From an uncultured bacterium (GTDB lineage Bacteria; UBP14; UBA6098; B30-G16), in the NCBI GenBank assembly GCA_964443405.1, contig CAYUDB010000001.1:2752-66751 (forward strand): DNA of 64,000 nucleotides, written 5' to 3'. The notes beneath the pieces were generated by a model. The model was not told where the DNA came from. It saw only the letters and a list, made by a program, of their open reading frames with translations, and did no database searches. Made by a program: the position numbers and the translations under genes. Below are positions 37,270 to 53,349 of the stretch, one piece after another. Positions within the stretch are counted from its first letter, which is position 1. Each line of letters starts with the position of its first letter.

Positions 37270-37312
37270 CGAATCCTCCTTATTTTGCGAAAACATTGTT
37301 GTGAAAAGGCAA

Positions 37313-38695
37313 TTATTCCTTGCCGCCTACTTTTACGTTGTGGATGCGAATGTGAGGTGCGCCAACGTCAACTGGTGCTGCCTGACCGCCTTTGCCACAG
37401 TTGCCGCCCCATTTTGCCCAAGAGAAGTCGGTGCCCACTGCGTCGATGTTTTCGAGCGTTTGGAACAAATTGCCCTGAAGCACGACATCACGCACAAGTT
37501 CGCCGGGTTTGCCATCTTCGATAATGTAAGCCGCGCCAGCCGAAAAAGAGAAGTTTTCAAGCTGCGTTTGACCACCGTAAGCATCGGTGCAATAGAGACC
37601 ATTTTTCACTTCGGCAAACATTTTTTTCACATCGTGCGGTCCTGCCTCGATGGCAGTGTTGGTCATGCGCACAATGGGTTCGTTGCGATAGCTTTGGGCA
37701 CGCGCATTACCTGTGGGTTGTTCGCCGAGCTTGGCTGCTGTCTCGCGATTGTGCAGACGACCTGCGAGCACGCCTTCGCGAATGAGATATGTTTTGTGCG
37801 CAACAATGCCTTCGTCATCGTAATGGATGGTGCCGTGAAGGTCGGGTTGTATTGTGCCATCATCGATGACATTGAGAAAATCTTTGCCGAAAACGCGACC
37901 CAAATTCATCATTTGCTGTGCTTGCGGGTTCTCGAGGATGAAATCGGATTCGGAGAGATGTCCAAAGGCTTCGTGGATGAAAACACCTGCAAGCTTTGGA
38001 TCGAGGACAACGGTGTATGTGCCACCTGTAACACTTTTTGCTGAAAGTAGGCGAAGCGCCATTTCGGCAGTTTCGCGTGCCTGAGCTTGTCTTTGTGCAA
38101 AATCAGAAAATCTGTGCTTGGTGCTCCAACCTTGCGTCCAAGCTTGTGTGTCCGAGCCTCTGCGTGCACGTGCAGCACAATAGAGAACACCATCGCGCAC
38201 AACATGTTCGATGCGTCCGCCGAAAGTGTTTGCAAAAAATTTCTCATTGCACCAATCGGCGTAATTGTTGATGGCAAGTATGATCTCTTCGCCGGTAGAT
38301 TTCATGATTTCATTGTATTCGCGGCAGAGAGCGATTTTAGTTTCGGCAGAATGGCTGTCGAAGGGGTCGATCATTTTTGTCTCGACATGCGTTTCGATTG
38401 GGTCTGACTCGGCAATGCGAATCGGCTCATCGGGTATGATTATCCGTGAGCTGTCGCAGGCATCGGCGAAAGCTTTTGGCAACGATGCGTAATCGTTGAA
38501 AGTGGCTATGCCCCAACCGTGGTTGTGCAGGAGCACACGAACAAAACCGCCTGCATCGTTTTTGCGCGAAAAGTTTTCGACTATGCCGTTTTTCACCACG
38601 AAAGATAGAGCGCTAGCCCTTTCGAGGCGAATTTCCGCGTAGCCTCCAACATTTTTCAGCAGGCTTTCGATTGTGTCGCGGTAGTTTTCGAACAT
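37313..38695 (-). CDS. tldD: TldD metalloprotease
   Basis: RBS CAGGGAGGCAAA. HEAFGH zinc-binding motif and the C-terminal glycine-rich tail typical of TldD. Confidence 0.88.
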   Translation of the reverse strand: MFENYRDTIESLLKNVGGYAEIRLERASALSFVVKNGIVENFSRKNDAGGFVRVLLHNHGWGIATFNDYASLPKAFADACDSSRIIIPDEPIRIAESDPIETHVETKMIDPFDSHSAETKIALCREYNEIMKSTGEEIILAINNYADWCNEKFFANTFGGRIEHVVRDGVLYCAARARRGSDTQAWTQGWSTKHRFSDFAQRQAQARETAEMALRLLSAKSVTGGTYTVVLDPKLAGVFIHEAFGHLSESDFILENPQAQQMMNLGRVFGKDFLNVIDDGTIQPDLHGTIHYDDEGIVAHKTYLIREGVLAGRLHNRETAAKLGEQPTGNARAQSYRNEPIVRMTNTAIEAGPHDVKKMFAEVKNGLYCTDAYGGQTQLENFSFSAGAAYIIEDGKPGELVRDVVLQGNLFQTLENIDAVGTDFSWAKWGGNCGKGGQAAPVDVGAPHIRIHNVKVGGKE

Positions 38696-38987
38696 TTTGC
38701 CTCCCTGTGTAGTTTTTTGTGCAATTTACCCCTTCATGACCAAATGCGCAATCAATAAAACGGTGTTCTCGCGTTATTAAAGTTTTACGCAAAAATTTGA
38801 ATGCCGTTTTAACATTTACCACAAGCTATAATGCACAAATTTCAAAAAATGTCAATGCAAATTTTCACTTTTTCAAATTTTTTACTAAAAAATGAAAAAT
38901 GAAGGAATATTTTGCTCAATTTGCGAAACCCATTGTGCGGTGCTTTTTCTTTGTGAAATTGCTGTTTTCTGTTGCTATTCCATAAAA

Positions 38988-40091
38988 ATGCGTCAAATTA
39001 TTCGCATGGACGACAAACTAAAGCTAATACTTGAGGCTTCGGCAAAGCTCGCGGAAGTACGCGACTTGCACACGATACTCATAACCGTAACCGACCTAAC
39101 CAAAAAGCTTTTGGCTGCGGATAGATGCGCGCTTTTTTTGCACGATAAAAAACGCTCCGAATTGTGGACTATTGTGGCACATGGAGTTTCCGAAATTCGC
39201 GTGCCCGATAATGCAGGTGCAGTAGGCGCTGCTTTTCACACGCGGCAAATCATCAATATCCCCGATGCGTACGCCGACAGCCGTTTCAATCCCGAAGTCG
39301 ATAAGCGCACGGGATATCGCACCCGCAATATACTTGCTATGCCCATGTTAAATTTGCAGGATGAAATCATTGGTGTATTTCAGGTTATAAACAAGCTCAC
39401 TTCCGATATTTTTTCGCCCGAAGACATAGACCTGGCACGTTATCTCACTGCATTTGCCGCATCAAATGTAGAAAACGCTTATCTTTACGAGCGGTTGAGG
39501 CTTGCACAACAAGATGTCGTTCATCGACTTTCGCACGCCACGAGTTACAAAGACCCCGAAACCGAAAATCACATTGTCCGTGTTGGGCTATATTGCGAGC
39601 TGATGGCACAAATAATGGGTTTTTCGCCCGAACGCGCGGAACTTGTGAAATTGGCAGCACCAATGCACGATATTGGTAAAGTGGGCATACCCGATCGCAT
39701 TTTGCTCAAGCCCGGCAAACTCGATGCCGATGAATGGGCATTTATGCAAAAGCATGCGCAATTTGGCTTTGAGATTTTGCGCGAAGCCGAAAGTGAGCTT
39801 TTGCAGGTGGCGGCATTAATTGCGCTCGATCATCACGAAAAATGGTCGGGTGGCGGTTACCCAAACGGCAAAATTGGCGCTGATATAACAGTTTACGGGC
39901 GTATGGTGGCTTTGGCGGATGTTTACGATGCGCTCACTTCGAAACGCCCCTACAAAGATGCTTGGTCGCATGAACAGGCTTTTGAGCTTATTGCCACCGA
40001 ATCGGGCAAGCATTTCGACCCAAAACTTGCGGCGATTTTCATCGAAAATGCCGACCGCATAGTTGAGCTTAAGCGCATCTACAAAGACTAA
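38988..40091 (+). CDS. GAF-domain-containing HD-GYP phosphodiesterase (c-di-GMP signalling)
   Basis: GAF N-terminus (CALFLHDKKRSELWTIVAHG...GAVGAAFHTRQIINIPDAY). HD-GYP domain with HD (MHDIGKVGIPD) and GYP (HHEKWSGGGYPNG) motifs. The start is placed at the in-frame ATG at 38988 because the upstream 32 codons are Cys-rich and non-protein-like. Confidence 0.8.
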   Translation: MRQIIRMDDKLKLILEASAKLAEVRDLHTILITVTDLTKKLLAADRCALFLHDKKRSELWTIVAHGVSEIRVPDNAGAVGAAFHTRQIINIPDAYADSRFNPEVDKRTGYRTRNILAMPMLNLQDEIIGVFQVINKLTSDIFSPEDIDLARYLTAFAASNVENAYLYERLRLAQQDVVHRLSHATSYKDPETENHIVRVGLYCELMAQIMGFSPERAELVKLAAPMHDIGKVGIPDRILLKPGKLDADEWAFMQKHAQFGFEILREAESELLQVAALIALDHHEKWSGGGYPNGKIGADITVYGRMVALADVYDALTSKRPYKDAWSHEQAFELIATESGKHFDPKLAAIFIENADRIVELKRIYKD

Positions 40092-40375: not shown

Positions 40376-43276
40376 ATGAAATACTATGTAGCAGTTTTGC
40401 TGGCATTTATGGTGACGATGGCATTTGCTTTTGTGGCGGGGAATAATTGTGGCAATGTGAATTTGAGCACACCGAAACTCAAGCGCATGGAAACACAGGA
40501 TTTTCACATGCTCTACGATGATGGTCGTGCCTGCGCACGTTGGGCTTTTCCCAAGCGACGCATGAACTTTTCGGGCGATGACGAAACCATAAAGCAACGT
40601 ATTAGAGCTTTTTGCGCGGCAAACGAACGTTATTTTGGAAATTCGACAACTTTAGGCGAAATATCGGTTTTACGCCGTGCAAATAAAACTTTCGTTAACG
40701 TATCGCAAGAGTTTTGCGGCAGGCAAGTTCTCGACGGTGGAATGTATTTTCGTGTAGCATCGAACGGTTACTTGTGGGCTTGCGGCAGCAAATTTTTCGC
40801 GAATTTCGAAAACGCCACATCGTTCGATGCGAGAGAATACGATGCTGCAATTTTTGCAGCTCAACTTTTTTTACGCGAAGAACTTGGCGTAAGTTCACCT
40901 GTTTTTTTGGGAAATGTGCGCGAGTTATTTTTTCCCGATGGCGACACTGCACGCGCAGCATATGAAATTCAAATGAGCGGAAATTATCCCGACCGCTACA
41001 ATTTATGGTTGAGTTCCAAAGACTTACGCATTTTGGGTTGGGAAAACGAAATTCGATATTACGATGTGAATGGTGATGTGGGAATTTTTCATCAGCCTGC
41101 GTTTTTCGACGATGAACAGGATTCGGCTGCATTTGCGCATGGGCGAATTAGTTTTAGCCAAGTGCAAGATACGCTTACAGATGCACATGGACACTATTAT
41201 TACAATGTGCTTTCGGACGGTGGTTTTCAGCCGTTTAAGAGCTGGCTTTGCGGGTTATATTGCCAGGTGTGGCGCATGGACGGACCTTCGGCATATTTGT
41301 GGGCATATTTTTCGGTTCCATCGGATTGGAGTTTTTGTTGGCGCGATGGCAACTCAATAGTCGATGAACGCAATTTATATTATCACACAACATATTACCA
41401 CGATTACATGAAGTCGCTCGACACAGATTTCGATGTCATGGATTATGCGGTTCCATCACGATGTCGTGTGCCCGACCAGCCCGAAAACGCGTATTGGGAC
41501 GGTTATGGCGCGAACTTTGGCGGCGGCGGCGAACGTTTACGCAACCTCGCTCAATTTAGTAATGTAATATATCACGAATACACACACGGCATAAGCGACA
41601 AAATGTATCGCGACGTTTTTTTTCCATACTCTGCTGAGAGTGGTGCACTTAATGAGGCTTTCAGTGATTTTTTTGCCTGCAGTCGAAATAATACACGTTA
41701 CGCAGGCGAGCGCCTGATGACCGACGATAGTTTTTTGCGCGACCTCATAAACACAAAAACGATGCCGCGTGATTGGGTGAACGAGCCGCATGGCGACGGT
41801 GAAATTGTCGCCGCCGCGTTTTGGAATATTCGTTCGCTTGTTGCACCAACATATGCGACAGCCGAGAGTATTGTGCATTTTGCGCGTTACAGCGGGGCTA
41901 ACACGTTCTACGACTTTGCAATAGAGTGTTTTTTCGTTGCCGATGACGACGACAGTATCGAAAACGGTTGCCGTCTGCTTTCGCCGATAGCGAACAGTTT
42001 TGCAGCACATGGCATTGGTCCTGGACGGTTTCCAACTTTGCTGGGAAATTTCGCCGCAGTTGCTGATGCCGATGGTGATGGATTTATTTCGGCGGGCGAG
42101 GACTTTGTTATTGAGACTAACGTTAAATATATCAACGAGTTTCCATATCCGCGCGCGGAAGGGCTTTTGGCTTATGTTGAGCTTGTGGACGAGCTGGGCA
42201 TATTAGCTTGCGATACGGTTGTTGTGGGCACGCTCGCGCGTAACGACTCGCTTGGTTTAACTTTTTCGCTTACTTTGCCTTACGAGCTTTTGCCGCACTA
42301 TGCGCACGCAGTTTTCTACTGTGGCACTGCGGGCGATTTTGCCGCTATCGACACTATAGAAATACCTGTTGGATATCCTCAGTTGCTCTTGGCAATGGAG
42401 CACGGTAATGACCATATTTTGCGCTTTTTCGCAAATGCACTTCGGGCACATAATGTGGTTTACGATATCGACACTGTGGATGGATCGTTTTCAAACGTCG
42501 ATAACTTATCGAATTATGATGTGGTGCTGCATTTTTCGGGCGATAGCATGAGTTCGCTGAATTCTTTTGCGCAGGAAAGAATATTATCATATTTTAATGC
42601 TGGCGGCAATGTTTTATTCACAGGTCAAGATGTGGCTGACAACACAAGTGCCGCGCTGTTCCTCGACGAATTGTTTGGTGCACAAGTGGCTTCTCTTTCT
42701 ACTGGTGCGCGCATGGTTTCGGGGGTTGATGGCACGGAACTTGGTGATGATGCAAGCTTTACGCTAATTGGTGCACCAGGTGCCGCAAATCAGCGCACGC
42801 CATCGGTGCTTACTCCTAGTGCTGGCGAGGGTTTTGCATTCTATGCGGGCACTGCCGAGGCTTTTGCAGGCGTATCGAAACGTGCCGCCGGCAGAGCAGT
42901 GCTTTTCTCGTGCGGCATTGAAGCCATAGGCAGTGGCACCGGCGGTCGAAAAACGCTTGTTCAGCTGATGCGCAGTTTGCTTGATTATTTCGCTGTGGAA
43001 ACTTACTCGGCTATAGATGCACAAACTATTGTGCCACAAAAATTTATAGTGCGAGCTTACCCAAACCCGTTCAATGCGGCTGTTACAATAGAAACCGCGG
43101 ACACCGGCGATAAACATCTGATTATCTATGATTTACGCGGACAAATCGTCGATGAAAATCGTTTTTCATCCCGTTCTTTCACATGGAACGCGCAAAACAT
43201 ACCATCTGGCGTGTATTTTTATCGTCTCAAGACACCCAAAAGCTCAACTTGCGGCAAACTTCTCCTCACCCGTTAA
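40376..43276 (+). CDS. Secreted M4/M36-like (thermolysin-type) zinc metalloprotease with T9SS C-terminal sorting domain (966 aa)
   Basis: RBS AGGAGAAGGAG. Signal peptide MKYYVAVLLAFMVTMAFAFVAG. Zincin motif HEYTHGISD plus the third zinc ligand ESGALNEAFSDFFA. C-terminal CTD (YPNPFNAAVTIET...LIIYDLRGQIVDE...PSGVYFYRLKTP...LLLTR). Confidence 0.75.
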   Translation: MKYYVAVLLAFMVTMAFAFVAGNNCGNVNLSTPKLKRMETQDFHMLYDDGRACARWAFPKRRMNFSGDDETIKQRIRAFCAANERYFGNSTTLGEISVLRRANKTFVNVSQEFCGRQVLDGGMYFRVASNGYLWACGSKFFANFENATSFDAREYDAAIFAAQLFLREELGVSSPVFLGNVRELFFPDGDTARAAYEIQMSGNYPDRYNLWLSSKDLRILGWENEIRYYDVNGDVGIFHQPAFFDDEQDSAAFAHGRISFSQVQDTLTDAHGHYYYNVLSDGGFQPFKSWLCGLYCQVWRMDGPSAYLWAYFSVPSDWSFCWRDGNSIVDERNLYYHTTYYHDYMKSLDTDFDVMDYAVPSRCRVPDQPENAYWDGYGANFGGGGERLRNLAQFSNVIYHEYTHGISDKMYRDVFFPYSAESGALNEAFSDFFACSRNNTRYAGERLMTDDSFLRDLINTKTMPRDWVNEPHGDGEIVAAAFWNIRSLVAPTYATAESIVHFARYSGANTFYDFAIECFFVADDDDSIENGCRLLSPIANSFAAHGIGPGRFPTLLGNFAAVADADGDGFISAGEDFVIETNVKYINEFPYPRAEGLLAYVELVDELGILACDTVVVGTLARNDSLGLTFSLTLPYELLPHYAHAVFYCGTAGDFAAIDTIEIPVGYPQLLLAMEHGNDHILRFFANALRAHNVVYDIDTVDGSFSNVDNLSNYDVVLHFSGDSMSSLNSFAQERILSYFNAGGNVLFTGQDVADNTSAALFLDELFGAQVASLSTGARMVSGVDGTELGDDASFTLIGAPGAANQRTPSVLTPSAGEGFAFYAGTAEAFAGVSKRAAGRAVLFSCGIEAIGSGTGGRKTLVQLMRSLLDYFAVETYSAIDAQTIVPQKFIVRAYPNPFNAAVTIETADTGDKHLIIYDLRGQIVDENRFSSRSFTWNAQNIPSGVYFYRLKTPKSSTCGKLLLTR

Positions 43277-43329: not shown

Positions 43330-43360
43330 AAAAAAGCCCTCGGGGAGGTGAGGGCTTTAT
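43330..43360. terminator. Bidirectional terminator hairpin (AGCCCTC-ggggaggt-GAGGGCT) between convergent genes, flanked by A5 and TTAT. It is stronger for the minus-strand kinase gene.
   Basis: 7-bp GC-rich stem seen directly between the stops at 43276 (+) and 43404 (-). Confidence 0.55.
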
Positions 43361-43403: not shown

Positions 43404-44888
43404 TTATTTGCGTTCGGCTGGGAGCCAGACGATGAACTTGGTACCCATGCCAACCTCCGATTCGATATCGATGCGCCCACGGTGCATTTTGACCACGCGT
43501 TGAGCGATAGCCAAGCCCAAACCTGTGCCCTGAATTTTTTTTGTGGCATCAGATTTGACGCGGAAAAATGGGTCAAAAATCGTGGCGACTGCCGATTTTG
43601 GTATGCCTATGCCTGTGTCGGCAACGGTGAGTTCTACGCCATCGCCAGCAATATGCGCGCAAACCGTTACTGTGCCTTCATCTTTGTTGTATTTGATGGC
43701 ATTTGAGACCAAATTTGTGATAAGCTGCATCATAGCGGTTTCATCGGCAGCAATGGGCGGAATTTCGCCAAGTTCAAGCACCACAGTAAGTTTCTTCTCA
43801 AGTGCCGACGATTCGAGCGATGACACAACCTCTTTTACGAGCGCGCCAAAATCGAGTGGCGAGAAATTGCCCTTAAGCTCGGCGGCTTCGGCACGTGTAA
43901 TCGAAAGCAAATCCTTAACCATATCGATTAGCCCTTCGAGCCGGCGTTTCGAGCGCATAAGGTATTCGGTTTTCTTTTCTTCTTCGGTAACGTATCCTTG
44001 TAAAATCATGTCGGTGAAACCGATAACTGCCGCTACGGGTGCTTTAATCTCGTGGCTTACTATGCGCACAAAATTCGATTTGGCGCGATCTAGTTCTGCC
44101 TGATGCGTAACATCTTGCAATATTATTGTTCTGCCGGCTTCCGAACCGTCTTTCGATGGCACGGGAGTTGCGTAAACCGAAAACATTTGTCCTTCGGCAA
44201 GTCCTTCCACTTCAAAAAGTTTTTCATTTTCTTCATTTTCGGGCAATTGGAGCAGTTCGAGCACTGCATCTTTGAGTTTTGATTCGGGCAGTTGCGGTGC
44301 AAGTTGCGATCCTACATCGAGTTTTGAAAGCTGAAGCATCGTTAGCGCTATGCCATTGTAGAGAACGATCTCGCCACGTGTGTTGACTACGAGAACGCCT
44401 TCGCGCAGTGTTGAGAGTATGGATTTTGTGCGTGTGCGTTCTGTGGCAAGTTCCATAAGCCGCTCTTCGCGTTCTTTTCGCAAACGTTCTGCCTCGAGCA
44501 AAAGTCGTCGTCGCTCGGCAACCCTATTTACAACTTGCCGAAGCTGTTGCGGTGTAAACGGTTTTGCCACAAAATCAAATGCACCCTTGCGTGTTGCTTC
44601 CACTGCCGCGTCGAGTGTGGCATAGGCGGTTACTATGAGGAAAACAGAATTTGGGCTTTGGGTGTGGAATTCATCCAAAAGTGTTATGCCATCTACGTCG
44701 GGGAGTTTCAAGTCGAGCAAGTAGATGTCATGGATTTTTTGTGCGGCAATGGCACGTGCGGTCGCACCACTTTCGGCTATGTCCACGTCGAAGCCTTCTG
44801 CCAAAAGTATTCTTTTGCTGCCTTCGCGCATGCCCCATTCGTCATCGACGATGAGCACTCGCATTTTATTTTCGGTTTCGGGTGTCAT
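43404..44888 (-). CDS. Hybrid sensor histidine kinase: N-terminal receiver (REC), PAS-like, HisKA and HATPase_c domains
   Basis: Start placed at ATG 44888 (MTPETENKMRVLIVDDE). REC motifs (LIVDDE...DLKLPDVDG...KPF). HisKA (SHEIKAPVAAVIGF). HATPase (NLVSNAIKY...DTGIGIP...GTGLGLAI). Confidence 0.8.
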   Translation of the reverse strand: MTPETENKMRVLIVDDEWGMREGSKRILLAEGFDVDIAESGATARAIAAQKIHDIYLLDLKLPDVDGITLLDEFHTQSPNSVFLIVTAYATLDAAVEATRKGAFDFVAKPFTPQQLRQVVNRVAERRRLLLEAERLRKEREERLMELATERTRTKSILSTLREGVLVVNTRGEIVLYNGIALTMLQLSKLDVGSQLAPQLPESKLKDAVLELLQLPENEENEKLFEVEGLAEGQMFSVYATPVPSKDGSEAGRTIILQDVTHQAELDRAKSNFVRIVSHEIKAPVAAVIGFTDMILQGYVTEEEKKTEYLMRSKRRLEGLIDMVKDLLSITRAEAAELKGNFSPLDFGALVKEVVSSLESSALEKKLTVVLELGEIPPIAADETAMMQLITNLVSNAIKYNKDEGTVTVCAHIAGDGVELTVADTGIGIPKSAVATIFDPFFRVKSDATKKIQGTGLGLAIAQRVVKMHRGRIDIESEVGMGTKFIVWLPAERK

Positions 44889-44922
44889 GTTATTATGAAT
44901 CTCAGCCAATTGTTTTCGTTGC

Positions 44923-44950
44923 GCGCACTTGCGCAAATTAGCAAGTGCGC
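44923..44950. promoter_or_regulatory. Perfect 10-bp inverted repeat GCGCACTTGC-gcaaatta-GCAAGTGCGC in the 5' leader of the hybrid kinase gene, flanked by an A/T-rich -10-like element. Candidate operator.
   Basis: Seen directly, 35-62 nt upstream of the 44888 start codon on the minus strand. Confidence 0.45.
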
Positions 44951-45073
44951 ATATAAAAATCACTTCGCGCATTCAATTTTGGCTTTTGCCAAACTGCCAA
45001 ATTCTTAAACACTGCGCCAATGGCTTCGCATTTGCTCTGTCGCAAGTGAAGGCAGTTTTGCTTTGGCACAAAA

Positions 45074-45463
45074 CTATTTTTCGAGCAGCTTGCGCAGGCG
45101 TGCCAAAAGGTCGATGGGCGAAATTGGTTTATCGACAAAGTCATCTGCCTTTATCCATTCGCGTTCACCAGCAGAGTCGAGACCAAACGAAAAACCAGTA
45201 ATCGACGCCACTGCAGTGAGCATGAGCAAAGGCATATTCGCAGTGATGGCATTGGCTTTTAGCTTGTGGCACAATACAAAACCTGCGTCGTCGGTTTCCA
45301 TCATGAGGTCCACTATCGCAGCATCTGGGCGCTCGCGAAGCGCAACTTCATATCCGGTGGCACCCGAATTTGCGGTTATAGTCTCGTAACCCGCCGAATT
45401 CAAAACTGCCGACATCTGTTCGCGCAAATCTGGGTCATCGTCCACAATGAGGATTTTCGTCAT
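45074..45463 (-). CDS. Single-domain response regulator (CheY-like REC)
   Basis: ATG at 45463 with AGGAGG RBS. MTKILIVDDDPDLRE...AAIVDLMME...KPI receiver motifs. No output domain. Confidence 0.8.
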   Translation of the reverse strand: MTKILIVDDDPDLREQMSAVLNSAGYETITANSGATGYEVALRERPDAAIVDLMMETDDAGFVLCHKLKANAITANMPLLMLTAVASITGFSFGLDSAGEREWIKADDFVDKPISPIDLLARLRKLLEK

Positions 45464-45531
45464 TTTATTGCCTCCTGTTTTCGTGTAATCGTTTTTTTTC
45501 GCGCTACTGCGCATTTTAAATAGCACGTGTT

Positions 45532-47556
45532 TTATTGAGAATGCATTTCACCAATTAGATTTGTGTCGCCCAAGCCAAAAGGTATTTCAACAGTGATGAC
45601 AGCACCTTTTTCGGGCGCAAGTTTTGATGTGGCACGGATATTGCCTCGGTGCAATTTCACTATGCCATAGGCTATGGCAAGCCCCAAGCCAGTGCCTTTG
45701 CCGATGGGTTTGGTGGTGAAAAACGGTGTGAAAATTCTCGGCAGCACATCATCGGCAATGCCGGCGCCGCTGTCGGAAATTTCGATAATAGCACGAGCGC
45801 CATCTGGTGATTTTCGACAGCTGATTTTGAGTGCGCCGAAACCGCCCATAGCCTCGATGGCGTTTTGAATTATGTTTATGATTACCTGCCGCATTTGGTC
45901 AGAATCGATGTTGATATGTGGCATCTCGGCAAAATCGAACTCAACTTTGACCCCTGCGTTTTTGGAATCGCGTATAAAAGGTTCGACAACTTCGCGCAAA
46001 AAAGCCTGCAAATCGACTTCTGAAAGCACCAGCTTGTTCTGGCGAGCAAAGTTGAGCAAATCGGCAACTATGCGTCGGCAGCGATCGGTTTCGCGCACTA
46101 TAACTTCGATATCCTCACGGCGCGGATCGGTGTTTTCGAAGCTTTCGAGCATAAGGTTCGAATAGAGCAGCACCGTGCCAAGTGGATTATTTACTTCATG
46201 CGCAACACCTGCGGCGAGTTGCCCCATTGCCGCCATTTTTTCGGATTGTATGAGCTGTTTTTGCGCTTCTTTGAGTTGTTTGTGGCTTTCTTCGAGGTCA
46301 CGCACAGCCTTTTCGTGAGCCTCGACTGTGTAGGGTAAGCACATTTCCGATTCGGCAAGCCCTTGTAAAACAGCTATGGCATGTTCGCGACATGTTTTGT
46401 AACCGCATGCACCGCAATCGAGTTCATCGGCACGCACAGTTTTGCCCATGCGCTGAAGCTGAAATTGTATTTGACTTTCGGTAGGTGTGGGCAAAGTGCG
46501 CAAATCGTCACTAAAATTCCGCGACAGGTCGATGTCGGAAACTAAATCCATGTTCGCGCGCCAACGCACCTCGTCAAATTCTTCGGTGCGCTCGCGATAG
46601 TATCGAAGCACATTGTCGCGATGGGCAAAAAGCTTTTCGCGATCTTTAGCTAAAGGTCCGTTAACGCAGCCTTCGCAGAAAAGTAGATCTAAAAAGCGAG
46701 GCTCCATTTCGCCTGCGGCAAAACTGTGCAAAAGTGAGACGATTCGATCTTTGCCTTCGGCGATAAGCAGATCGTTTTTGCTTATGTCGTATTCGATGCC
46801 CGCACTTCGCAGAAGCCCACCCGAAACAGGGAAAAGCGTGCCACGTGAAGGTTGAGGTCCATCGAAAGGCAGCGGCATAGCTTTTGATGTATCGATGCCA
46901 GCTTTTCGGAACATTTCTTTTATCTCGTTGAAAGTGAGCACGATATCGACATCGCCAGCTACTTGTGGCTCGGCGGCTTCAACTTTTTTTGCCACACAAG
47001 GACCCAGAAAAACCACTTTCGATTTTGGGGCAAAAATCTCTTTTACCGCGCGCGCCATGGCTATCATAGGGCTTATAACCGGTGCCAGATTTGGAATGAT
47101 TTCGGGCAAGTATTTTATAACGTAAAACGATATTGCCGGGCAGGGAGTGGCGATTATTGGACTTTTGAGTTTATCGTAAAGACGTTTGTACTCGCGAGCA
47201 ACCATGTCGGCGCCAAAAGCTACTTCCATTACATGCTCAAAACCGAGCACTTTGAGCGCACCTACAAGGCGTTCGGGCGGCTCACAATTTGGAAAAAACG
47301 CCGGAAAGGATGGCGCTACAATGGCGGTTAGCTCATGTGAATTATCCTTGAGCATTTCCCAAACGCGATCGGTGTAGTTTTCGAAGACTTTCGCCTTTTG
47401 ACTGCACACGCGCACGCAGTTACCACAGGAGATGCATCTATCTTCCACTATGAGCGCCTGCCCGCCCACGATTTGGATAGCGTGGGCTGGGCATTCGCGA
47501 ACACAAGTGTAGCATTTACGACATTTTTCGGGTATGGTGTGGACTACTCCACGCAT
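45532..47556 (-). CDS. Sensor histidine kinase with an N-terminal [FeFe]-hydrogenase-like (HydS-like) sensory domain: 2x[4Fe-4S] ferredoxin motifs, an H-cluster-type domain, a Cys-rich linker, HisKA and HATPase_c
   Basis: RBS GGAGGA. CxxCxxCxxxCP twice at the N-terminus. Hydrogenase large-subunit-like region with L1-like ATPCPA, L2-like [10 protein letters not shown] and L3-like [11 protein letters not shown]. Then CGACGYKTC, a coiled coil, an H-box (AHEVNNPLG) and a G-box (DSGAGIA...[10 protein letters not shown]). Confidence 0.75.
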
Positions 47557-47570
47557 TTAATTTTCCTCCA

Positions 47571-49283
47571 TCAAATGCCGAACTCGCCGCGCGGCACATA
47601 ATGTGTGTGCAAAAGATGATGGCTTGTTTCGGAAAGTGGTTTGCCCAAACATTCGCGATAAAGTGCTATGATCTCGGGATTTTCGTGGCTTTTGCGCATG
47701 GGCATGGCACGATCGACCATGTTGAGAGCTTCGATGCGAAGCTTCACCGCTTGCGCATCGGCATAAGGTTGACCGCCACCGTTAATGCAACCGCCCGGGC
47801 ACGCCATTATCTCGATGAAATGAAATTGCTCTCCCGAAACAACGCGCTCCATAAGTGCTTTTGCGGCACCCAAACCCGAAGCTGTGGCAACTTTGAGAAC
47901 CAGCCCGCCCACGGGTATTTCGGCTTCGCGCAAGCCTTCGCCACCAATTTGGCGAAACTCTACTTTTGCAAGTTCTTCATCGGTAATGAGTTTATAAGCC
48001 GTGCGAAGTGCCGCTTCCATAACTCCACCGCTGCGACCAAAAATAACCGCAGCACCTGTCGATGAGCCTAGTGGATGATCGAAATCTTCGTCTGCCATTT
48101 TAGTCAAGTTCACGCCAAATTGCTTCAAAAGCCTTGCTGCTTCGCGAGTTGTGAGGACTGCATCCACATCTTGAATTGAGTCGCTCGAAAGCTCTGGGCG
48201 CTGTGATTCGAATTTTTTGGCAGTGCAGGGCATTATGCTAACTACAAAAACCTTTTTGGGGTCGATGCCAGCTTTTGGTGCCCAACAATGTTTTACAACT
48301 GCACCGAGCATCTCATGCGGCGATTTTGCCGAAGAGACGTTGGGCAAAAGATTTGGAAAATTATGCTCGACAAATTTCACCCAACCGGGGCTGCACGAAG
48401 TGAGCAAAGGAAGTGCGCCACCCTCTTTGATGCGGTGCACAAGCTCGGAACCTTCTTCCATGATAGTGAGGTCGGCGGCGAAATCTGTGTCGAGAACTTT
48501 ATCGAAACCCACGCGGCGAAGCGATGCGGCAAGTTTGCCGGTTACGATGGAACCGGGTGCCATGCCAAACTCTTCGCCAATGGATACGCGAATGGCAGGC
48601 GCCACCTGCACCACCGTTGTGATGTCGGGGTCGGCGAGAGCACGCAAAACTTTATCGAGATGGCTCTTTTCGTGCAATGCGCCTGTGGGACAAACCTTTA
48701 TACATTGACCGCAAAATGTGCACTGTGTAGCGCCCATACTTTGATGAAAAGCAGGCGAAACTGTGCTCTGTGCTCCACGATGAGAGAAATCTATGGCGCC
48801 AACGTGTTGAATTTCGTTGCATACGCGCACGCATTTGCCGCAGAGTATGCACTTTTCGGGTTCGCGCACAAGCGATGGGTTGGCGATATCGGGAAAACGA
48901 CGCTCGTAACCGCGTGGCAATTGCACACGTTCTATATTGTATTGACGCGCAAGTTCTGCAAGCTCGCACATATCCGATTTGAAGCAAGTGGTGCATTCGT
49001 TGGGGTGCGCTGCCAAAAGCATTTCCAAAATCGTGCGACGAGCAAAAAGCACTTTCGGCGAACGAGTTTTAACGTCCATGCCCTCCGAAACCGGAGTGGC
49101 GCAAGATGGCAACAGTCTGCCGCCAACTTCCACAATGCAAATTCTGCATGCGCCCGCAGGGTCCAAGCCTTCGAGATAGCAGAGTGTAGGAATATCGATG
49201 CCGATTTTTTTTGCGGCTTGAAGTATGGTTTCGCCGGCTTCGGCAGTGGTTTTAATACCGTCTATTGTGATGTTCAATGGCAT
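47571..49283 (-). CDS. hydA: [FeFe]-hydrogenase catalytic subunit HydA (N-terminal 2Fe-2S and 4Fe-4S domains plus the H-cluster domain)
   Basis: RBS AAGGAGGTAAAA. H-cluster motifs LTSCSPGWVKF (L1), MPCTAKKFE (L2) and EIMACPGGCINGGGQP (L3). N-terminal ferredoxin-like cysteine clusters. Confidence 0.9.
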   Translation of the reverse strand: MPLNITIDGIKTTAEAGETILQAAKKIGIDIPTLCYLEGLDPAGACRICIVEVGGRLLPSCATPVSEGMDVKTRSPKVLFARRTILEMLLAAHPNECTTCFKSDMCELAELARQYNIERVQLPRGYERRFPDIANPSLVREPEKCILCGKCVRVCNEIQHVGAIDFSHRGAQSTVSPAFHQSMGATQCTFCGQCIKVCPTGALHEKSHLDKVLRALADPDITTVVQVAPAIRVSIGEEFGMAPGSIVTGKLAASLRRVGFDKVLDTDFAADLTIMEEGSELVHRIKEGGALPLLTSCSPGWVKFVEHNFPNLLPNVSSAKSPHEMLGAVVKHCWAPKAGIDPKKVFVVSIMPCTAKKFESQRPELSSDSIQDVDAVLTTREAARLLKQFGVNLTKMADEDFDHPLGSSTGAAVIFGRSGGVMEAALRTAYKLITDEELAKVEFRQIGGEGLREAEIPVGGLVLKVATASGLGAAKALMERVVSGEQFHFIEIMACPGGCINGGGQPYADAQAVKLRIEALNMVDRAMPMRKSHENPEIIALYRECLGKPLSETSHHLLHTHYVPRGEFGI

Positions 49284-49293
49284 TTTTACCTCC

Positions 49294-51246
49294 TTATATT
49301 ACCAAAACCGCACCGAACTTACACACTTCGGCACAAGTTCCGCAGCCTATACATTTTTCTTGCACTATGTGATGCGGATGCTTGGTGGCGCCCAAAATAC
49401 AGCCTACAGGACAATTTTTGGCGCACAAAGTGCATCCCACGCATTTATCGGGGTTTATGGTATATGTTTTGAGAGCAGTGCAACTACCGGCAGGGCATTT
49501 GCGGTCGAAAAGATGTGCTTCGTATTCTTCGCGGTAGTATTTGAGCGTGGAAAGAACGGGGTTTGGTGCTGTTTGACCCAAACCACAGAGCGCTGTTTCG
49601 CGAACTGTTTTTGCCAATTCTTCGAGCTGTGCCAAGCCTTTGAAGCGAGCAAGTATGCCGCCTTCTTCGGGCATGCCCTGACGTGTGGTAAGATTTTCGA
49701 GTATGTGCTTCATGCGACGGGTGCCTTCGCGACATGGCACGCATTTGCCGCATGATTCGTTTGTAGTGAACTCTAAGAAATAACGCGCGATATCGACCAT
49801 GCATGTGCCTTCATCCATGATGACCAGACCGCCGGAACCCATCATGGCGCCGATTTCTTTAAGCGACTCATATTCCACAGGCGTGTTCCATAGTCTCACC
49901 GGAACACAAGCGCCCGAAGGTCCACCTATCTGAACAGCTTTGCAAGGCTTACCTGTAGAGCTTCCGCCACCGATACCATCGACAATCTCGCCAACCGATA
50001 TACCCATAGGTACTTCGACCAAACCTGTGTTGGCTACTTTGCCCGAAAGTGCAAATACTTTGGTACCTGCAGATTTCGACGTGCCAACAGAGTTGAAAGC
50101 CGAAGCACCGTTGGCAATAATCCAACCGACATTGGCGTAAGTTTCAACGTTATTGATGATTGTGGGTTTGCCCCAAAGCCCCGACACTGCCGGATACGGC
50201 GGACGAGGACGAGGTGTGCCACGTTTTCCTTCTATCGATGCGAGTAATGCCGTCTCTTCGCCGCAAACAAAAGCGCCAGCACCCATTTTTATGCGAATTT
50301 CGAAAGAGAAATTTGTGCCGAGTATGTTTTTGCCCAATATGCCTGTCGCATGAGCATCGGCAATTGCTTCGGTAAGTCGTTTTATGGCAAGTGGATATTC
50401 TGCACGACAATAGATGTAACCAACAGATGCACCAATGGCATAACCTGCAATGATGATGCCTTCCAAAGCTTCATGCGGGTCACCTTCCAAAACTGAACGA
50501 TCCATAAAAGCACCAGGGTCGCCTTCGTCGGCGTTCATAACAGCATATTTGACATCGTTTTTTTCTTGAGCAGCCAAACGCCATTTTCTACCGGTAGGAA
50601 AACCGCCGCCGCCTCTACCGCGCAAGCCCGATTTCTCAACTTCGGTGAGAACTTGTTCGGGAGAATACTCAAGTAGCGCTTTTGCCAAACCGCGATATCC
50701 ACCCCAAGCTATGGCTTCGGAGAGATTTGACGGGTCGAAACGACCAATTTTGCCGAGCACTATGCGTCTCTGTTTGGCAAAAAATGGGTGCTCCGGAAAA
50801 GTGGGAATGCCATCTATTGGCTTTTCGCCATCCTCGACTATTTGAACTATTGCCGATTCGGTATCGTGTTCGCCTGTGGCAAGAACACGGTGCACTAAAT
50901 ATTGAACATCGGTGGCACGAAGGTTGCCGTATAATACAGCTGGTTGCCCGGGCAATTTGATTTCGGCAAGAGGTTCCATTTGGCAGAAACCTATACAGCC
51001 TACTTCTTTGAGTTCGGCGCGAACATTGGCACGTTTGAGTTCGGTTTTGAAGGCATCGATAATATCGGCGGCGCCGGTGGCAAGACCGCAGGTGCTTGTG
51101 CCGATAAGTATGGATGTTGTGTTGCCTGCGGTGCGTCTGCGCAAACGCAGCGATTCGGTTTGTGCTTCGGCGCTGGAAATTGCCCAGAGCAAAAACGGTT
51201 GTGTGCTACCCGAAGCGGTATATTTTTCGAAAAGTGTGCCTTTCAT
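49294..51246 (-). CDS. hydB: NuoF-like flavoprotein subunit HydB of the trimeric (bifurcating-type) hydrogenase (FMN/NAD(H) site, 4Fe-4S; N-terminal thioredoxin-like and C-terminal 2x[4Fe-4S] domains)
   Basis: RBS AGGGAGG. GGGGFPTGRKW FMN motif, a NuoF-type 4Fe-4S cysteine cluster (ESCGKCVPCREG), and C-terminal CxxCxxCxxxCP pairs. Overlaps hydC by 4 nt (ATGA). Confidence 0.88.
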   Translation of the reverse strand: MKGTLFEKYTASGSTQPFLLWAISSAEAQTESLRLRRRTAGNTTSILIGTSTCGLATGAADIIDAFKTELKRANVRAELKEVGCIGFCQMEPLAEIKLPGQPAVLYGNLRATDVQYLVHRVLATGEHDTESAIVQIVEDGEKPIDGIPTFPEHPFFAKQRRIVLGKIGRFDPSNLSEAIAWGGYRGLAKALLEYSPEQVLTEVEKSGLRGRGGGGFPTGRKWRLAAQEKNDVKYAVMNADEGDPGAFMDRSVLEGDPHEALEGIIIAGYAIGASVGYIYCRAEYPLAIKRLTEAIADAHATGILGKNILGTNFSFEIRIKMGAGAFVCGEETALLASIEGKRGTPRPRPPYPAVSGLWGKPTIINNVETYANVGWIIANGASAFNSVGTSKSAGTKVFALSGKVANTGLVEVPMGISVGEIVDGIGGGSSTGKPCKAVQIGGPSGACVPVRLWNTPVEYESLKEIGAMMGSGGLVIMDEGTCMVDIARYFLEFTTNESCGKCVPCREGTRRMKHILENLTTRQGMPEEGGILARFKGLAQLEELAKTVRETALCGLGQTAPNPVLSTLKYYREEYEAHLFDRKCPAGSCTALKTYTINPDKCVGCTLCAKNCPVGCILGATKHPHHIVQEKCIGCGTCAEVCKFGAVLVI

Positions 51247-51713
51247 TTTTTCGCACCTCCCTTAAGCGCGTCCACGAGCTGCAAAATGCCATTGGGTGTC
51301 ATGTGCCCGTAAAATTTGTCGTCGATCATTATTGCCGGCGCAATGGAGCACGAACCCAAACACGCCACCTCTTCGATAGTGAAAAACCCATCTTTGGTCG
51401 TCTCGCCCGATTTCACGCCGAGGTGTTTGCACAAGAGATCTAATATTTTTGCGCTGCCCTTAACATGACAGGCTGTGCCGCGACAAACACGAATTATGTG
51501 CTTGCCCGGGGCGTTGAGCTTGAACTGGTTGTAAAACGTTACCACGCCAAAAATGCGGGCGGGCGTCGTTTCGAGTTTGCGCGCAACCTCGAACACCGCC
51601 TCTTGCGGAATGTAACCGGCTATTTCCTGCACCTTTTGCAGAACAGGAATTATCGAATCCTGCTTGCCGGCTTCGAGGTCGTCTATTATCATTTTGATGC
51701 GGTCATCGAGCAT
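51243..51713 (-). CDS. hydC: NuoE-like thioredoxin-fold 2Fe-2S subunit HydC
   Basis: RBS AGGGAGG. 2Fe-2S ligands in a CRGTAC...CLGSC arrangement. 156 aa. Confidence 0.85.
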   Translation of the reverse strand: MLDDRIKMIIDDLEAGKQDSIIPVLQKVQEIAGYIPQEAVFEVARKLETTPARIFGVVTFYNQFKLNAPGKHIIRVCRGTACHVKGSAKILDLLCKHLGVKSGETTKDGFFTIEEVACLGSCSIAPAIMIDDKFYGHMTPNGILQLVDALKGGAKK

Positions 51714-51767
51714 CTATTCCTCCCTAAATTCGATGCGACTAACTTCGTTCCGAATTTCACAATGTCT

Positions 51768-51785
51768 AAGCAGCTTTTGTGCCAT
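51768..51785 (-). promoter_or_regulatory. Candidate sigma-54 (-24/-12) promoter of the hydCBA-kinase operon: minus-strand TGGCAC-aaaag-CTGCT, ~55 nt upstream of the hydC ATG
   Basis: Reverse complement of 51770-51784 reads aTGGCACaaaagCTGCt, with the canonical GG-N10-GC spacing. A sigma-54 activator gene is encoded divergently 280 bp away. Confidence 0.5.
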
Positions 51786-51993
51786 TTTTCACAATTTTCC
51801 CAAGCTGCCGATTGAAATTTCATATAACCTTGCACAATAATCTTTTACCCAGATTCCAACAAATCTGAGTTTTGCAATTTTTTTTGCATTTAGTTGTTTT
51901 AGTGTCACAAAAAAGATGAGACCACATAATTTTTTTTGCTGTGGCAGCTTCGAGAAAAAGTTATATATTTAAAAATCATAAGCTTAAAAAGAT

Positions 51994-53349
51994 ATGGATC
52001 AAAAAGAAATTCACATAGCGGTTGTAGATGACAACACACAGATGCGCGGCGTTTTGTCGCATGCGCTAGCTGTGGATGGTTATAGCGTGGAGAGTTTTCC
52101 CGACGGCAGAAGCTTTTTGGAAAGCTTTTCGCCAAACAAGTATCACCTTGTGTTGCTTGATCTTATGATGCCAGACATAACAGGAATCGAGGTAGTGCAT
52201 TTGGCGCGGCAAATCGACCCATTTGCTGTGATTGTCATTGTAACCGGTTATAGCAGCAACGAGAATATAGTTGAAGCCATTCGCGCGGGTGCCTTTGATG
52301 TGCTTTCAAAACCATTCAACCTCGATGAACTTAGATTGATGTTGCACAAAGCGTTACGTCAATCCAAGATCAACATTGAGCTTGCCGCCGCACGCGTGGA
52401 AAATTTTGAAGATAGCTTTCACGGGCTTCTGGGGCGATCGTCTGAGATGCGCCGCATTTTCCAAAAAGTGCGGCAAATTGCCGCGCGCGACGTAACTGTT
52501 TTAATTCAGGGTGCATCCGGCACGGGAAAGGAGCTTTTGGCGCGCGCAATACATAAAATATCGCACAGAGCGCTAAAACCTTTTGTAGCAGTCAATTGCG
52601 GCGCCATACCCGAAACGCTCATCGACGCTGAACTTTTTGGTTTCAAGAAAGGTGCTTTCACCGGCGCTGTTGCAAACCGTGATGGACTAATACGTTCGGC
52701 TGCAGGCGGCACACTGTTTTTGGATGAAATTGGCGATTTGCCACAGCCAACGCAACTGCGCCTGCTGCGTTTTTTGCAGGAAAAAGAGGTGAGACCAGTA
52801 GGTTCGGACGAGACTTTTACTGTGGACGTGCGTGTTATTTCTGCCACAAACCGCGATCTTGCCGACCTTGTGGAGAAAAACGTCTTCCGCGACGACCTTT
52901 ATTACCGCCTGAGCGTTGTGCCGATAACTTTGCCAACTTTAGTCGCGCGGCGCGAGGACATACCACTTTTGACTGCACATTTCATTGAGAAAGTTTCGCG
53001 ACGGCATAGCATACAGCCACCGCGCATCGAACCCGATGCAATGGAATCACTTGTGAGATATCATTGGCCTGGCAATGTGCGACAGCTCGAAAACGTAGTT
53101 GAGCGGCTTGCTGTTTTCGCAACAGATTGCAGCATAAGGCTTTCCGACTTGCCGGAAGAAATTCGCGAGTATGGTAAAACACTTGCCACAATGGAAGTGC
53201 CATTGGGTTTAACTCTCGACGAACTGGAACGCTGGTACATTTCGCGTATCTTGTTGCGTGTCAATGGAAATCGCACACAAGCGGCAGAACTTTTAGGCAT
53301 CGATAGGCGCACATTACAACGCAAGCTCGCCGAATGGGGCAAACCGTGA
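51994..53349 (+). CDS. Sigma-54-dependent transcriptional regulator (NtrC family: REC, AAA+ sigma-54 activation domain, Fis-type HTH)
   Basis: REC (IAVVDDN...DLMMPD...KPF). AAA+ with GAFTGA (FKKGAFTGA) and Walker A (GASGTGKE). C-terminal HTH (QAAELLGIDRRTLQRKL). Confidence 0.9.
   Translation: MDQKEIHIAVVDDNTQMRGVLSHALAVDGYSVESFPDGRSFLESFSPNKYHLVLLDLMMPDITGIEVVHLARQIDPFAVIVIVTGYSSNENIVEAIRAGAFDVLSKPFNLDELRLMLHKALRQSKINIELAAARVENFEDSFHGLLGRSSEMRRIFQKVRQIAARDVTVLIQGASGTGKELLARAIHKISHRALKPFVAVNCGAIPETLIDAELFGFKKGAFTGAVANRDGLIRSAAGGTLFLDEIGDLPQPTQLRLLRFLQEKEVRPVGSDETFTVDVRVISATNRDLADLVEKNVFRDDLYYRLSVVPITLPTLVARREDIPLLTAHFIEKVSRRHSIQPPRIEPDAMESLVRYHWPGNVRQLENVVERLAVFATDCSIRLSDLPEEIREYGKTLATMEVPLGLTLDELERWYISRILLRVNGNRTQAAELLGIDRRTLQRKLAEWGKP

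Follow-up and report, generated by a model that had tools for sequence, protein, structure and literature searches.

[FeFe] hydrogenases of group C that carry a histidine kinase domain and are encoded beside a group A3 enzyme have been described in several lineages, and the locus analyzed here, at positions 43,404–53,349 of a 64-kb stretch of contig CAYUDB010000001.1 from an uncultured bacterium (this whole stretch is referred to as the window), belongs to this very common, already described cluster type. HydDB lists within [FeFe] group C a C1 class that is 'histidine kinase-linked (putative)' and a phosphatase-linked C3 class (PMC5037454), and in Ca. Lernaella (Ca. Lernaella stagnicola) a C3 gene whose product includes a histidine kinase domain has been noted beside an A3 gene (PMC9324843). 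A 2024 study of Hydrogenedentota named 'BfuT' a protein with a histidine kinase domain that is encoded downstream of bfuA in the sub-type V BfuABC cluster, a sub-type common to Caldithrix abyssi DSM 13497 (WP_006928132.1) and several Bacteroidota isolates; the kinase-domain forms were placed in C3 and some in C1 (PMC11406978). The window shares with these systems the gene order hydC-hydB-hydA-sensor/kinase as well as the domain string of the sensor, consisting of two [4Fe-4S] clusters, an H-domain, a C-terminal four-cysteine cluster, HisKA and HATPase_c. It differs in that a downstream receiver (REC), a REC-kinase, and a sigma-54 activator with its promoter, none of which is discussed in PMC5037454, PMC11406978 or PMC9324843, are all present; the terms 'response regulator' and 'sigma' have no occurrence in the main text of PMC11406978. 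We favor, with moderate confidence, a reading in which HydCBA, a fused H2 sensor kinase, the activator and the sigma-54 promoter form an autoregulatory loop.

The closest biochemical references are TmHydS from Thermotoga maritima (group C/M2f) and TamHydS from Thermoanaerobacter mathranii (group D/M2e), the two putative sensory enzymes characterized so far (PMC8163306). Both resemble the window sensor in their N-terminal pair of [4Fe-4S] clusters, the Cx2Cx4Cx16C motif, the loss of C299 and of the proton path, the changes at M353 and M497, and the fact that they are encoded together with a bifurcating HydABC (PMC8163306). They differ in output: TmHydS ends in a PAS domain and TamHydS has no output domain, whereas the window sensor is joined through a single helix to a full histidine kinase transmitter. 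For the Ruminococcus albus HydS and Thermoanaerobacterium hfs clusters, PMC8924675 describes a sensor-type hydrogenase encoded with a metabolic one, some physiological evidence for a regulatory role, and an output thought to run via PAS together with Ser/Thr kinase or phosphatase partners, in contrast to the fused two-component transmitter of the window.

On the signaling side, the AtoS/AtoC and ZraS/ZraR systems, the output of which is a sigma-54 promoter, are the best-scoring families for the transmitter of the window sensor, for the receiver and for the AAA+ domain of the activator. All of these scores fall well short of the equivalog cut-offs, and the input domain is of an entirely different kind; the likeness is one of family level only. 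The partners of AtoS and ZraS are sigma-54 activators. A comparable logic is known from the HoxBC-HoxJ-HoxA system of Cupriavidus necator and the HupUV-HupT-HupR system of Rhodobacter capsulatus, in which a low-activity [NiFe] hydrogenase signals to a histidine kinase and thence to an NtrC-family regulator of the hydrogenase operon, and in C. necator Hox regulation acts through a sigma-54 promoter. The window follows the same logic by analogy, not by family membership: sensor and kinase are separate proteins with a [NiFe] fold in the Hox and Hup systems, but a single polypeptide with an H-cluster here. The [NiFe] regulatory hydrogenases make up HydDB group 2b (PMC5037454).

Composition and distribution of the cassette

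Gene content was derived from a Pfam domain scan and an open reading frame (ORF) map of the 64-kb window, both of which bore out the parts, order and coordinates given in the first-pass annotation. The minus strand carries, in this order, hydC, hydB, hydA, the sensor-kinase gene, a gene for a stand-alone REC, a gene for a REC-PAS kinase (hereafter kinase 2) and a terminator, with the NtrC-type activator gene diverging from hydC on the plus strand (51994–53349). Comparative synteny, one of the checks proposed in that annotation, was evaluated over 80 GTDB species loci (among at least 595 genomes) plus locus L001, in which ORFs were called and matched to the window proteins; 64 loci had enough flanking sequence to be evaluable upstream, and 72 downstream. 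The sensor gene has hydA immediately before it in 51 of the 64 and a stand-alone REC immediately after it in 58 of the 72. A kinase that starts with a REC, and may or may not contain PAS, is encoded downstream in 68 of the 72; stand-alone REC and REC-kinase are both present in 55 of the 72. The closest relatives (56–62% identity) have the identical order with hydG/hydE or hydF alongside, and the hyd proteins have their nearest named relatives in Krumholzibacteriota and Zixibacteria metagenome-assembled genomes (MAGs; ~57–62% identity). On this comparative evidence all six genes of the cassette, that of the REC-PAS kinase among them, form a unit that is conserved and widespread.

The locus had previously been regarded as an unusually complete circuit, and this rarity did not hold up: with one genome scanned per GTDB species, the kinase fusion inside a hydCBA operon has relatives in at least 595 species-level genomes, its synteny is conserved, and it is already in the literature. 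A protein search with the sensor returned at least 7848 matches at E ≤ 1e-10, and the best 120 were all full-length fusions of 660–720 aa, from Zixibacteria, Calditrichia, Armatimonadota, Chloroflexota, Bacteroidota, Spirochaetota, Planctomycetota and other phyla.

Three variations on the cassette were seen in the survey. In ten Bacteroidales loci (L018, L025, L029, L031, L039, L043, L048, L073, L075 and L077) a 166–207 aa protein, composed of a receiver domain and ~70 extra residues that have no Pfam match, is encoded directly upstream of hydC (at ~5.1–5.7 kb of these loci), and may be that lineage's own output regulator. A second, more divergent sensor-kinase-like gene (31–42% identity) occurs in L041, L054, L062, L064, L067, L081 and L082, and in six of these, all but L041 and all from Bacteroidales/Sphingobacteriia, it is upstream of hydC and divergent; this fits the clusters with 'two bfuT' known from some Bacteroidota (PMC11406978). 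A second hydrogenase cluster follows within 10 kb of the cassette in L011, L013, L026, L038, L070–L072 and L080, either of an Ignavibacteria type (REC, hydC, a short hydB of ~405 aa and a long hydA of ~625–668 aa) or of a KSB1 type (a second hydCBA), implying that the signaling module may control more than one enzyme.

The catalytic subunits of the window are encoded by hydC (51243–51713, minus strand; PF01257, 1.1e-50; a NuoE-like [2Fe-2S] subunit), hydB (49294–51246, minus; NuoF-like, with FMN/NADH site, SLBB and C-terminal 2x[4Fe-4S] by Pfam) and hydA (47571–49283, minus; Fer2_4, NADH-G_4Fe-4S_3, Fer4, Fe_hyd_lg_C at 4e-93 and Fe_hyd_SSU). HydA scored 826 bits, against a cut-off of 765, with NCBIfam NF040763 ('NADH-dependent [FeFe] hydrogenase, group A6') and matched T. 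kivui HydA1 (PDB 8a6t, 2.6e-193) over residues 4–565. It is complete, its H-domain being flanked by [2Fe-2S] and [4Fe-4S] domains at the N-terminus and by a small-subunit-like tail at the C-terminus, and it retains the proton-path residues E279, E282, R286, S319 and C299. The full-length PDB matches of HydB are the B subunits of bifurcating enzymes (7t2r, 2e-218; 7q4v, 1.5e-202; 8a6t, 1.6e-189; 7p5h, 1.7e-187). Judged by these matches, HydCBA is a Bfu-type, group A3/A6 [FeFe] hydrogenase that is probably NADH- and ferredoxin-linked and would work by electron bifurcation or confurcation, with the qualification that some close homologues of Bfu-type HydABC are NADH-only (PMC8924675), and it may run in either direction, making or consuming H2.

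The L1 motif of the HydA H-cluster (residues ~296–302) reads TSCSPGW, compared to the textbook TSCCPxW, with serine in place of the second cysteine. We considered this change as an anomaly and rejected the idea, as the same motif is found in A. woodii HydA1 (7q4v) and is the majority form among HydA proteins encoded beside sensor kinases in related loci (45 of 72); TSCSPGW is a common natural variant of bifurcating HydA.

The ATG of hydC is preceded by a GGGAGG ribosome-binding site, hydC and hydB overlap by 4 nt (ATGA), and gaps of 10 nt and 14 nt separate hydB from hydA and hydA from the sensor gene, each with a GGAGG-type ribosome-binding site. The earlier description of a 4-nt overlap with gaps of 3–16 nt is accurate up to this point, but the sensor gene and the REC gene are 68 nt apart if the REC start is ATG 45463 (GGAGG 7 nt upstream), and at least 101 nt lie between the REC gene and kinase 2 by the longest ORF. 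The sole good intrinsic terminator on the minus strand (43333–43358; a 9-bp stem with 5 G-C pairs, then TTTTTTG) lies 46 nt past the stop codon of kinase 2 and closes the cluster. Given the close spacing and the position of this only convincing terminator after the last kinase gene, one transcript from hydC to the terminator is plausible, although there may be an internal control point ahead of the last gene.

The stand-alone receiver (45074–45463, minus; CheY-like, 129 aa; PF00072, 1.2e-16) has the acceptor Asp, Thr and Lys all present and best matches the receivers of PleD, PhoB and MtrA. Kinase 2 (REC-PAS-HisKA-HATPase_c by Pfam, minus; longest ORF 43404–44972) has the H-box SHEIKAPV, a transmitter that best matches PnpS, WalK and PhoR, and an N-terminal REC that best matches the AtoC receiver; the scores of both proteins are far below the equivalog cut-offs. 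The true start of kinase 2 is probably ATG 44864 or 44888, as placed by alignment with orthologues (52–53% identity), which makes the spacer after the REC gene ~185–210 nt long. This spacer (44865–45073) is unusually long and is absent from orthologous loci, where the two genes overlap or abut. It holds a perfect 10-bp GC-rich inverted repeat, GCGCACTTGC-N8-GCAAGTGCGC (44941–44950 and 44923–44932, no strand assigned), a 6-bp TTTGGC-N4-GCCAAA and several TTGGC/GCCAA half-sites. No U-tract follows the 10-bp repeat, and the RNA fold of the whole spacer was no better than that of shuffles (z = −0.98 and −1.06), the local 10-bp hairpin being the only robust element within it. TTGGCA-N4-TGCCAA-type palindromes were tried as an operator family and dropped: 13 were found in the window against 5.8 expected, but they are scattered and mostly intragenic. 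As regards the proposal that kinase 2 has its own palindromic operator, a perfect inverted repeat is present as a candidate, but the kinase is not a separate unit, since a REC-kinase follows the sensor gene in nearly all evaluable loci and its gene overlaps or abuts the REC gene in the closest relatives, making it part of the cassette.

The kinase-fused putative sensor hydrogenase

The sensor-kinase gene (45532–47556, minus) encodes a 674-aa protein with Fer4x2, Fe_hyd_lg_C (1.4e-49), PF04060 (8.7e-9), HisKA and HATPase_c, which we assign from its sequence as a HydS-type, group C-like putative sensory [FeFe] hydrogenase domain fused to a histidine kinase. In an alignment of 24 sequences (45–62% identity), the following elements are invariant in all 24: the eight N-terminal ferredoxin cysteines (C11, C14, C17, C21, C40, C43, C46 and C50), the four H-cluster cysteines (C138 in (A/T)xPCP, C186 in GPCxAKKxE, and C293 and C296 in FCEGC), the C-terminal C380-x2-C383-x4-C388-x16-C405, and the phospho-acceptor H452 in AHEVNNPL. 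Nor does this alignment show any variation in the APS motif or, within PCxxKKxE, in Lys and Glu. The C-terminal spacing is identical to the Cx2Cx4Cx16C motif defined for group C/D enzymes (PMC8163306). The first-pass annotation had raised the prospect that the N-terminal domain might be an unrelated Fe-S domain; as a Pfam iron-hydrogenase domain with an intact set of H-cluster ligands, it is hydrogenase-like.

Residues of the sensor were placed on CpI numbering via the window HydA, using a pairwise alignment of 28% identity in which positions other than C299 are less certain. The substitutions obtained are C299 to Pro, S319 to Ala, E282 to Arg, R286 to Lys, M353 to Gly and M497 to Leu, the change at M353 being that of TmHydS and the change at M497 that of TamHydS. 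According to these alignments, the cofactor site is intact and the group A proton path is lost. No PAS domain was found in the Pfam scan of the sensor, in which HisKA and HATPase_c come directly after the cluster motif, and this places the protein in the kinase-bearing subclass and not in M2f in the strict sense. An AlphaFold2 model (mean predicted local distance difference test score 84) predicts one continuous helix that runs from just after the last cluster cysteine to the histidine of the H-box.

The preserved cofactor site also bears on the nature of the signal. The sensor could read something other than H2, either the ferredoxin/NADH redox state via its three accessory [4Fe-4S] clusters or damage to the cluster by O2 or CO, with the H-domain serving as a degenerate scaffold. 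In keeping with this view, the sensory role of groups C and D is only putative (PMC8924675), the canonical P1–P3 motifs are barely detectable in some kinase-bearing group C1 proteins (PMC11406978), and the C-terminal cluster of TamHydS is not reduced by H2 (PMC13104023); the L3 motif of the window sensor itself is CxxC (FCEGC), as opposed to Cx3C in group A. A mere scaffold is, however, difficult to reconcile with the invariance of the H-cluster cysteines, the PCxxKKxE Lys and Glu and the APS motif across 24 diverse members, or with the HydE, HydF and HydG genes that flank the cassette in relatives. Moreover, the loss of C299 and the changes to Gly and Leu at the two methionines match TmHydS and TamHydS, which bind the H-cluster and react with H2 (PMC8163306). 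We therefore regard a signal other than H2 as distinctly unlikely.

The sigma-54 activator and its candidate promoter

The product of the divergent gene contains Sigma54_activat (6.5e-69), Response_reg (8.9e-26) and HTH_8 (1.7e-12) domains with a complete set of motifs: GAFTGA, GASGTGKE (Walker A) and DEIGD (Walker B) are present, the receiver has its acceptor Asp within LLDLMMPD, and the protein ends in a Fis-type HTH. Its best NCBIfam match is AtoC, at 421 bits and under the equivalog cut-off, and on domain and motif content it is an NtrC-family enhancer-binding response regulator (REC, AAA+, HTH). Between this gene and hydC lies a control region of 280 nt (51714–51993, no strand assigned), in which a sigma-54 (−24/−12) promoter-like site, TGGCACaaaagCTGCT (51784–51769, minus), is located 55 nt upstream of the hydC ATG. 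The site reads TGGCAC-N5-CTGCT, with one mismatch to TGGCAC-N5-TTGCW and a correct GG-N10-GC.

Five clear orthologues of the activator were found at 54–60% identity, the remainder being at 49% or below, and the genomic context was read for the three on long contigs (P0122, P0123 and P0124). Two of them, P0122 (60%, from a Krumholzibacteriota MAG) and P0123 (58%), are encoded directly upstream of, and codirectionally with, a hydC-hydB-hydA-sensor-REC-REC/PAS kinase cluster (loci L087 and L088), and in both cases the stretch from the activator gene to hydC contains a sigma-54 site (TGGCACcatcgTTGCA in L087, TGGCATagcccCTGCA in L088). The conserved position of this site, together with the complete activator motifs, lends support to the sigma-54-type promoter and divergent NtrC activator of the first-pass annotation. 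Beyond these orthologues, Pfam-confirmed NtrC-type genes adjoin the cassette in L008, L010, L011, L013, L021, L035 and L059, from several other phyla, and in each of these seven loci the hyd genes are preceded by a TGGCAC/T-N5-TTG(C/A) site; sigma-54-like sites are also present in L060 and L072. Sites with at most one mismatch occur upstream of hydC in 5 of 67 regions, compared to 0.5% of random 400-nt segments, a roughly 15-fold enrichment. Together, these comparisons indicate that the link between NtrC gene and sigma-54 site is non-random, and that sigma-54 control is a recurrent minority variant of the cassette that is fixed in the lineage of the window.

The 12-nt sequence GCAAAAAAAATT (minus strand) is present as two exact direct copies at 52-nt spacing (51876–51887 and 51928–51939), both upstream of the sigma-54 site, and small inverted repeats are also present in 51714–51993. 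The direct repeat could reflect A-tract bending, binding sites, or chance in A/T-rich DNA; being A-rich and of low complexity, it was given no weight as an activator-binding site. An 8-nt repeat at the same 52-nt spacing is found in L088. Elsewhere in the window, a second NtrC-type activator (REC, AAA+, HTH_8) is encoded at 58091–59461 on the minus strand, with no histidine kinase gene seen among its neighbors, and might instead be the partner of one or the other hyd-cluster kinase.

Proposed signal flow through the locus

In the autoregulatory loop that we favor, H2 binding or turnover at the catalytically slowed H-cluster of the sensor would shift the kinase/phosphatase balance of the fused transmitter, possibly by way of the C-terminal [4Fe-4S] cluster, from whose last cysteine the helix extends toward the phospho-acceptor His. 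Phosphotransfer to AtoC-like receivers, those of the sigma-54 activator and probably of kinase 2, would follow, and the phosphorylation state of the activator would set transcription from the sigma-54 promoter and thus the levels of enzyme, sensor and relay proteins. Kinase 2 and the stand-alone receiver would form a second branch or a phosphate sink, with extra input through PAS. We infer both H2 as the signal and all of the phosphotransfer steps; the pairing of the sensor kinase with the activator and the kinase 2 receiver as its targets, and of kinase 2 with the stand-alone REC, is a lead suggested by the family matches.

Such a loop would constitute feedback, and not the feed-forward arrangement proposed earlier, because enzyme, sensor kinase and REC, and probably kinase 2 as well, would be expressed from the promoter that is its predicted target. 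The loop could be of either sign: the enzyme may run both ways, and the regulatory logic of HoxJ/HoxA, in the analogous [NiFe] system, is inverted. Overall, the parts, the single regulatory module and the sigma-54/NtrC link of the earlier interpretation are retained, the last with comparative support, whereas rarity, separate control of kinase 2 and feed-forward are not.

Several observations weigh against the loop. The sigma-54 site is not significant within the window, where 8 one-mismatch matches were found against 4.0 expected and 8 of 100 shuffles reached 8. Most of the surveyed loci are without a sigma-54 site, an NtrC gene is present in only ~7–8 of 80 and hence is no defining partner of the sensor kinase, and the closest, Zixibacteria-like locus has neither. 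The third activator orthologue, P0124 (58%), is not beside hyd genes, and the control regions of the window, L087 and L088 have no dyad and no k-mer of at least 7 nt in common; no binding site for the activator was recognized in 51714–51993. The rpoN gene is absent from the 64-kb window, although the two sigma-54 activators encoded there imply that it exists in the genome. The 185–210-nt spacer and its strong hairpin may mean that kinase 2 is expressed separately or in an attenuated manner, and the family-level resemblance of transmitters and receivers is weak evidence of pairing. The earlier remark that the regulator partners of these proteins are unknown was also a fair one: we found no experimental work on the signal output of any [FeFe] sensory hydrogenase (group C/D), and reviews and biophysical papers from 2020–2026 call the sensory role and the signaling route untested (PMC8163306, PMC13104023, PMC8924675).

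The lack of enrichment of one-mismatch sites within the window, the scarcity of sigma-54 sites among the loci and the hyd-independent location of P0124 would equally be expected if the NtrC gene and TGGCAC-N5-CTGCT were adjacent to the hyd genes by chance and a sigma-70-type or FCB-type promoter were used instead; a 10-of-12 sigma-70-like match does occur in the same intergenic region, but on the plus strand. The orthologue contexts make this very unlikely, as the pairing of activator and sigma-54 site is repeated not only in the two nearest orthologous loci but also in seven or more loci from other phyla, and the sites are enriched ~15-fold over background.

A more serious competitor, which we hold to be possible but unlikely, is post-translational control. 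Here the sensor kinase would be a fourth subunit or close partner of HydABC, in line with its treatment as the cluster subunit T in PMC11406978, and its main output, the stand-alone receiver, would act by protein contact on the enzyme or on kinase 2; the activator encoded by the NtrC gene would serve another kinase or be an addition peculiar to the lineage. Such a scheme accommodates the conservation of the sensor/REC/REC-kinase triad across phyla while a DNA-binding regulator is usually absent within 10 kb, the lack of a DNA-binding domain in the stand-alone receiver, and the tight coupling of the sensor gene to hydA across a 14-nt gap. It does not explain why the activator gene stays by the cassette in two arrangements (codirectional in L087 and L088, divergent in the window), each time with a sigma-54 site before hydC, nor why the kinase core of the sensor is of the AtoS/ZraS type. 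Post-translational control and the autoregulatory loop are not mutually exclusive.

The two would be combined if the triad, which is conserved beside hydCBA in more than 10 phyla, were a branched two-kinase relay with a slow transcriptional and a fast post-translational arm. In such a relay, the H2-sensing kinase would charge both the sigma-54 activator, for slow feedback, and the receiver of the second kinase, whose CheY-like partner would provide fast control by direct action on the hydrogenase or redox metabolism. We put this forward as a speculative extension of the loop, with a small chance of being correct.

Outside the cluster, the region adjoining it upstream contains a TldD/PmbA peptidase pair (35959–38695, minus) and a GAF-HD(-GYP-like) protein (38892–40091, plus), for which no link to the hyd genes was seen. 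Two secreted peptidases with type IX secretion sorting domains and a PorV-like gene are also encoded in the window (40376–43276, 23911–26253 and 15143–16054). Taken with the strong Shine-Dalgarno sites of the hyd operon, these genes fit a bacterium of the FCB superphylum other than Bacteroidota.

The practical value of the locus is limited in that its class is catalogued and present in cultured species such as Caldithrix abyssi. Two features nevertheless appear to be undescribed, namely the conserved pair of downstream receiver and REC-kinase, and, specific to this lineage, a sigma-54 activator and promoter with which the circuit becomes complete and testable. Whereas TmHydS carries a PAS domain and TamHydS lacks an output domain (PMC8163306, PMC13104023), the fusion to a kinase offers a direct read-out via autophosphorylation and phosphotransfer. 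In this lineage two receivers and a sigma-54 activator, as candidate partners, lie within 10 kb together with a candidate promoter, which makes full reconstitution in vitro possible, and the branched relay, if true, would for the first time define an output pathway of an [FeFe] sensory hydrogenase.

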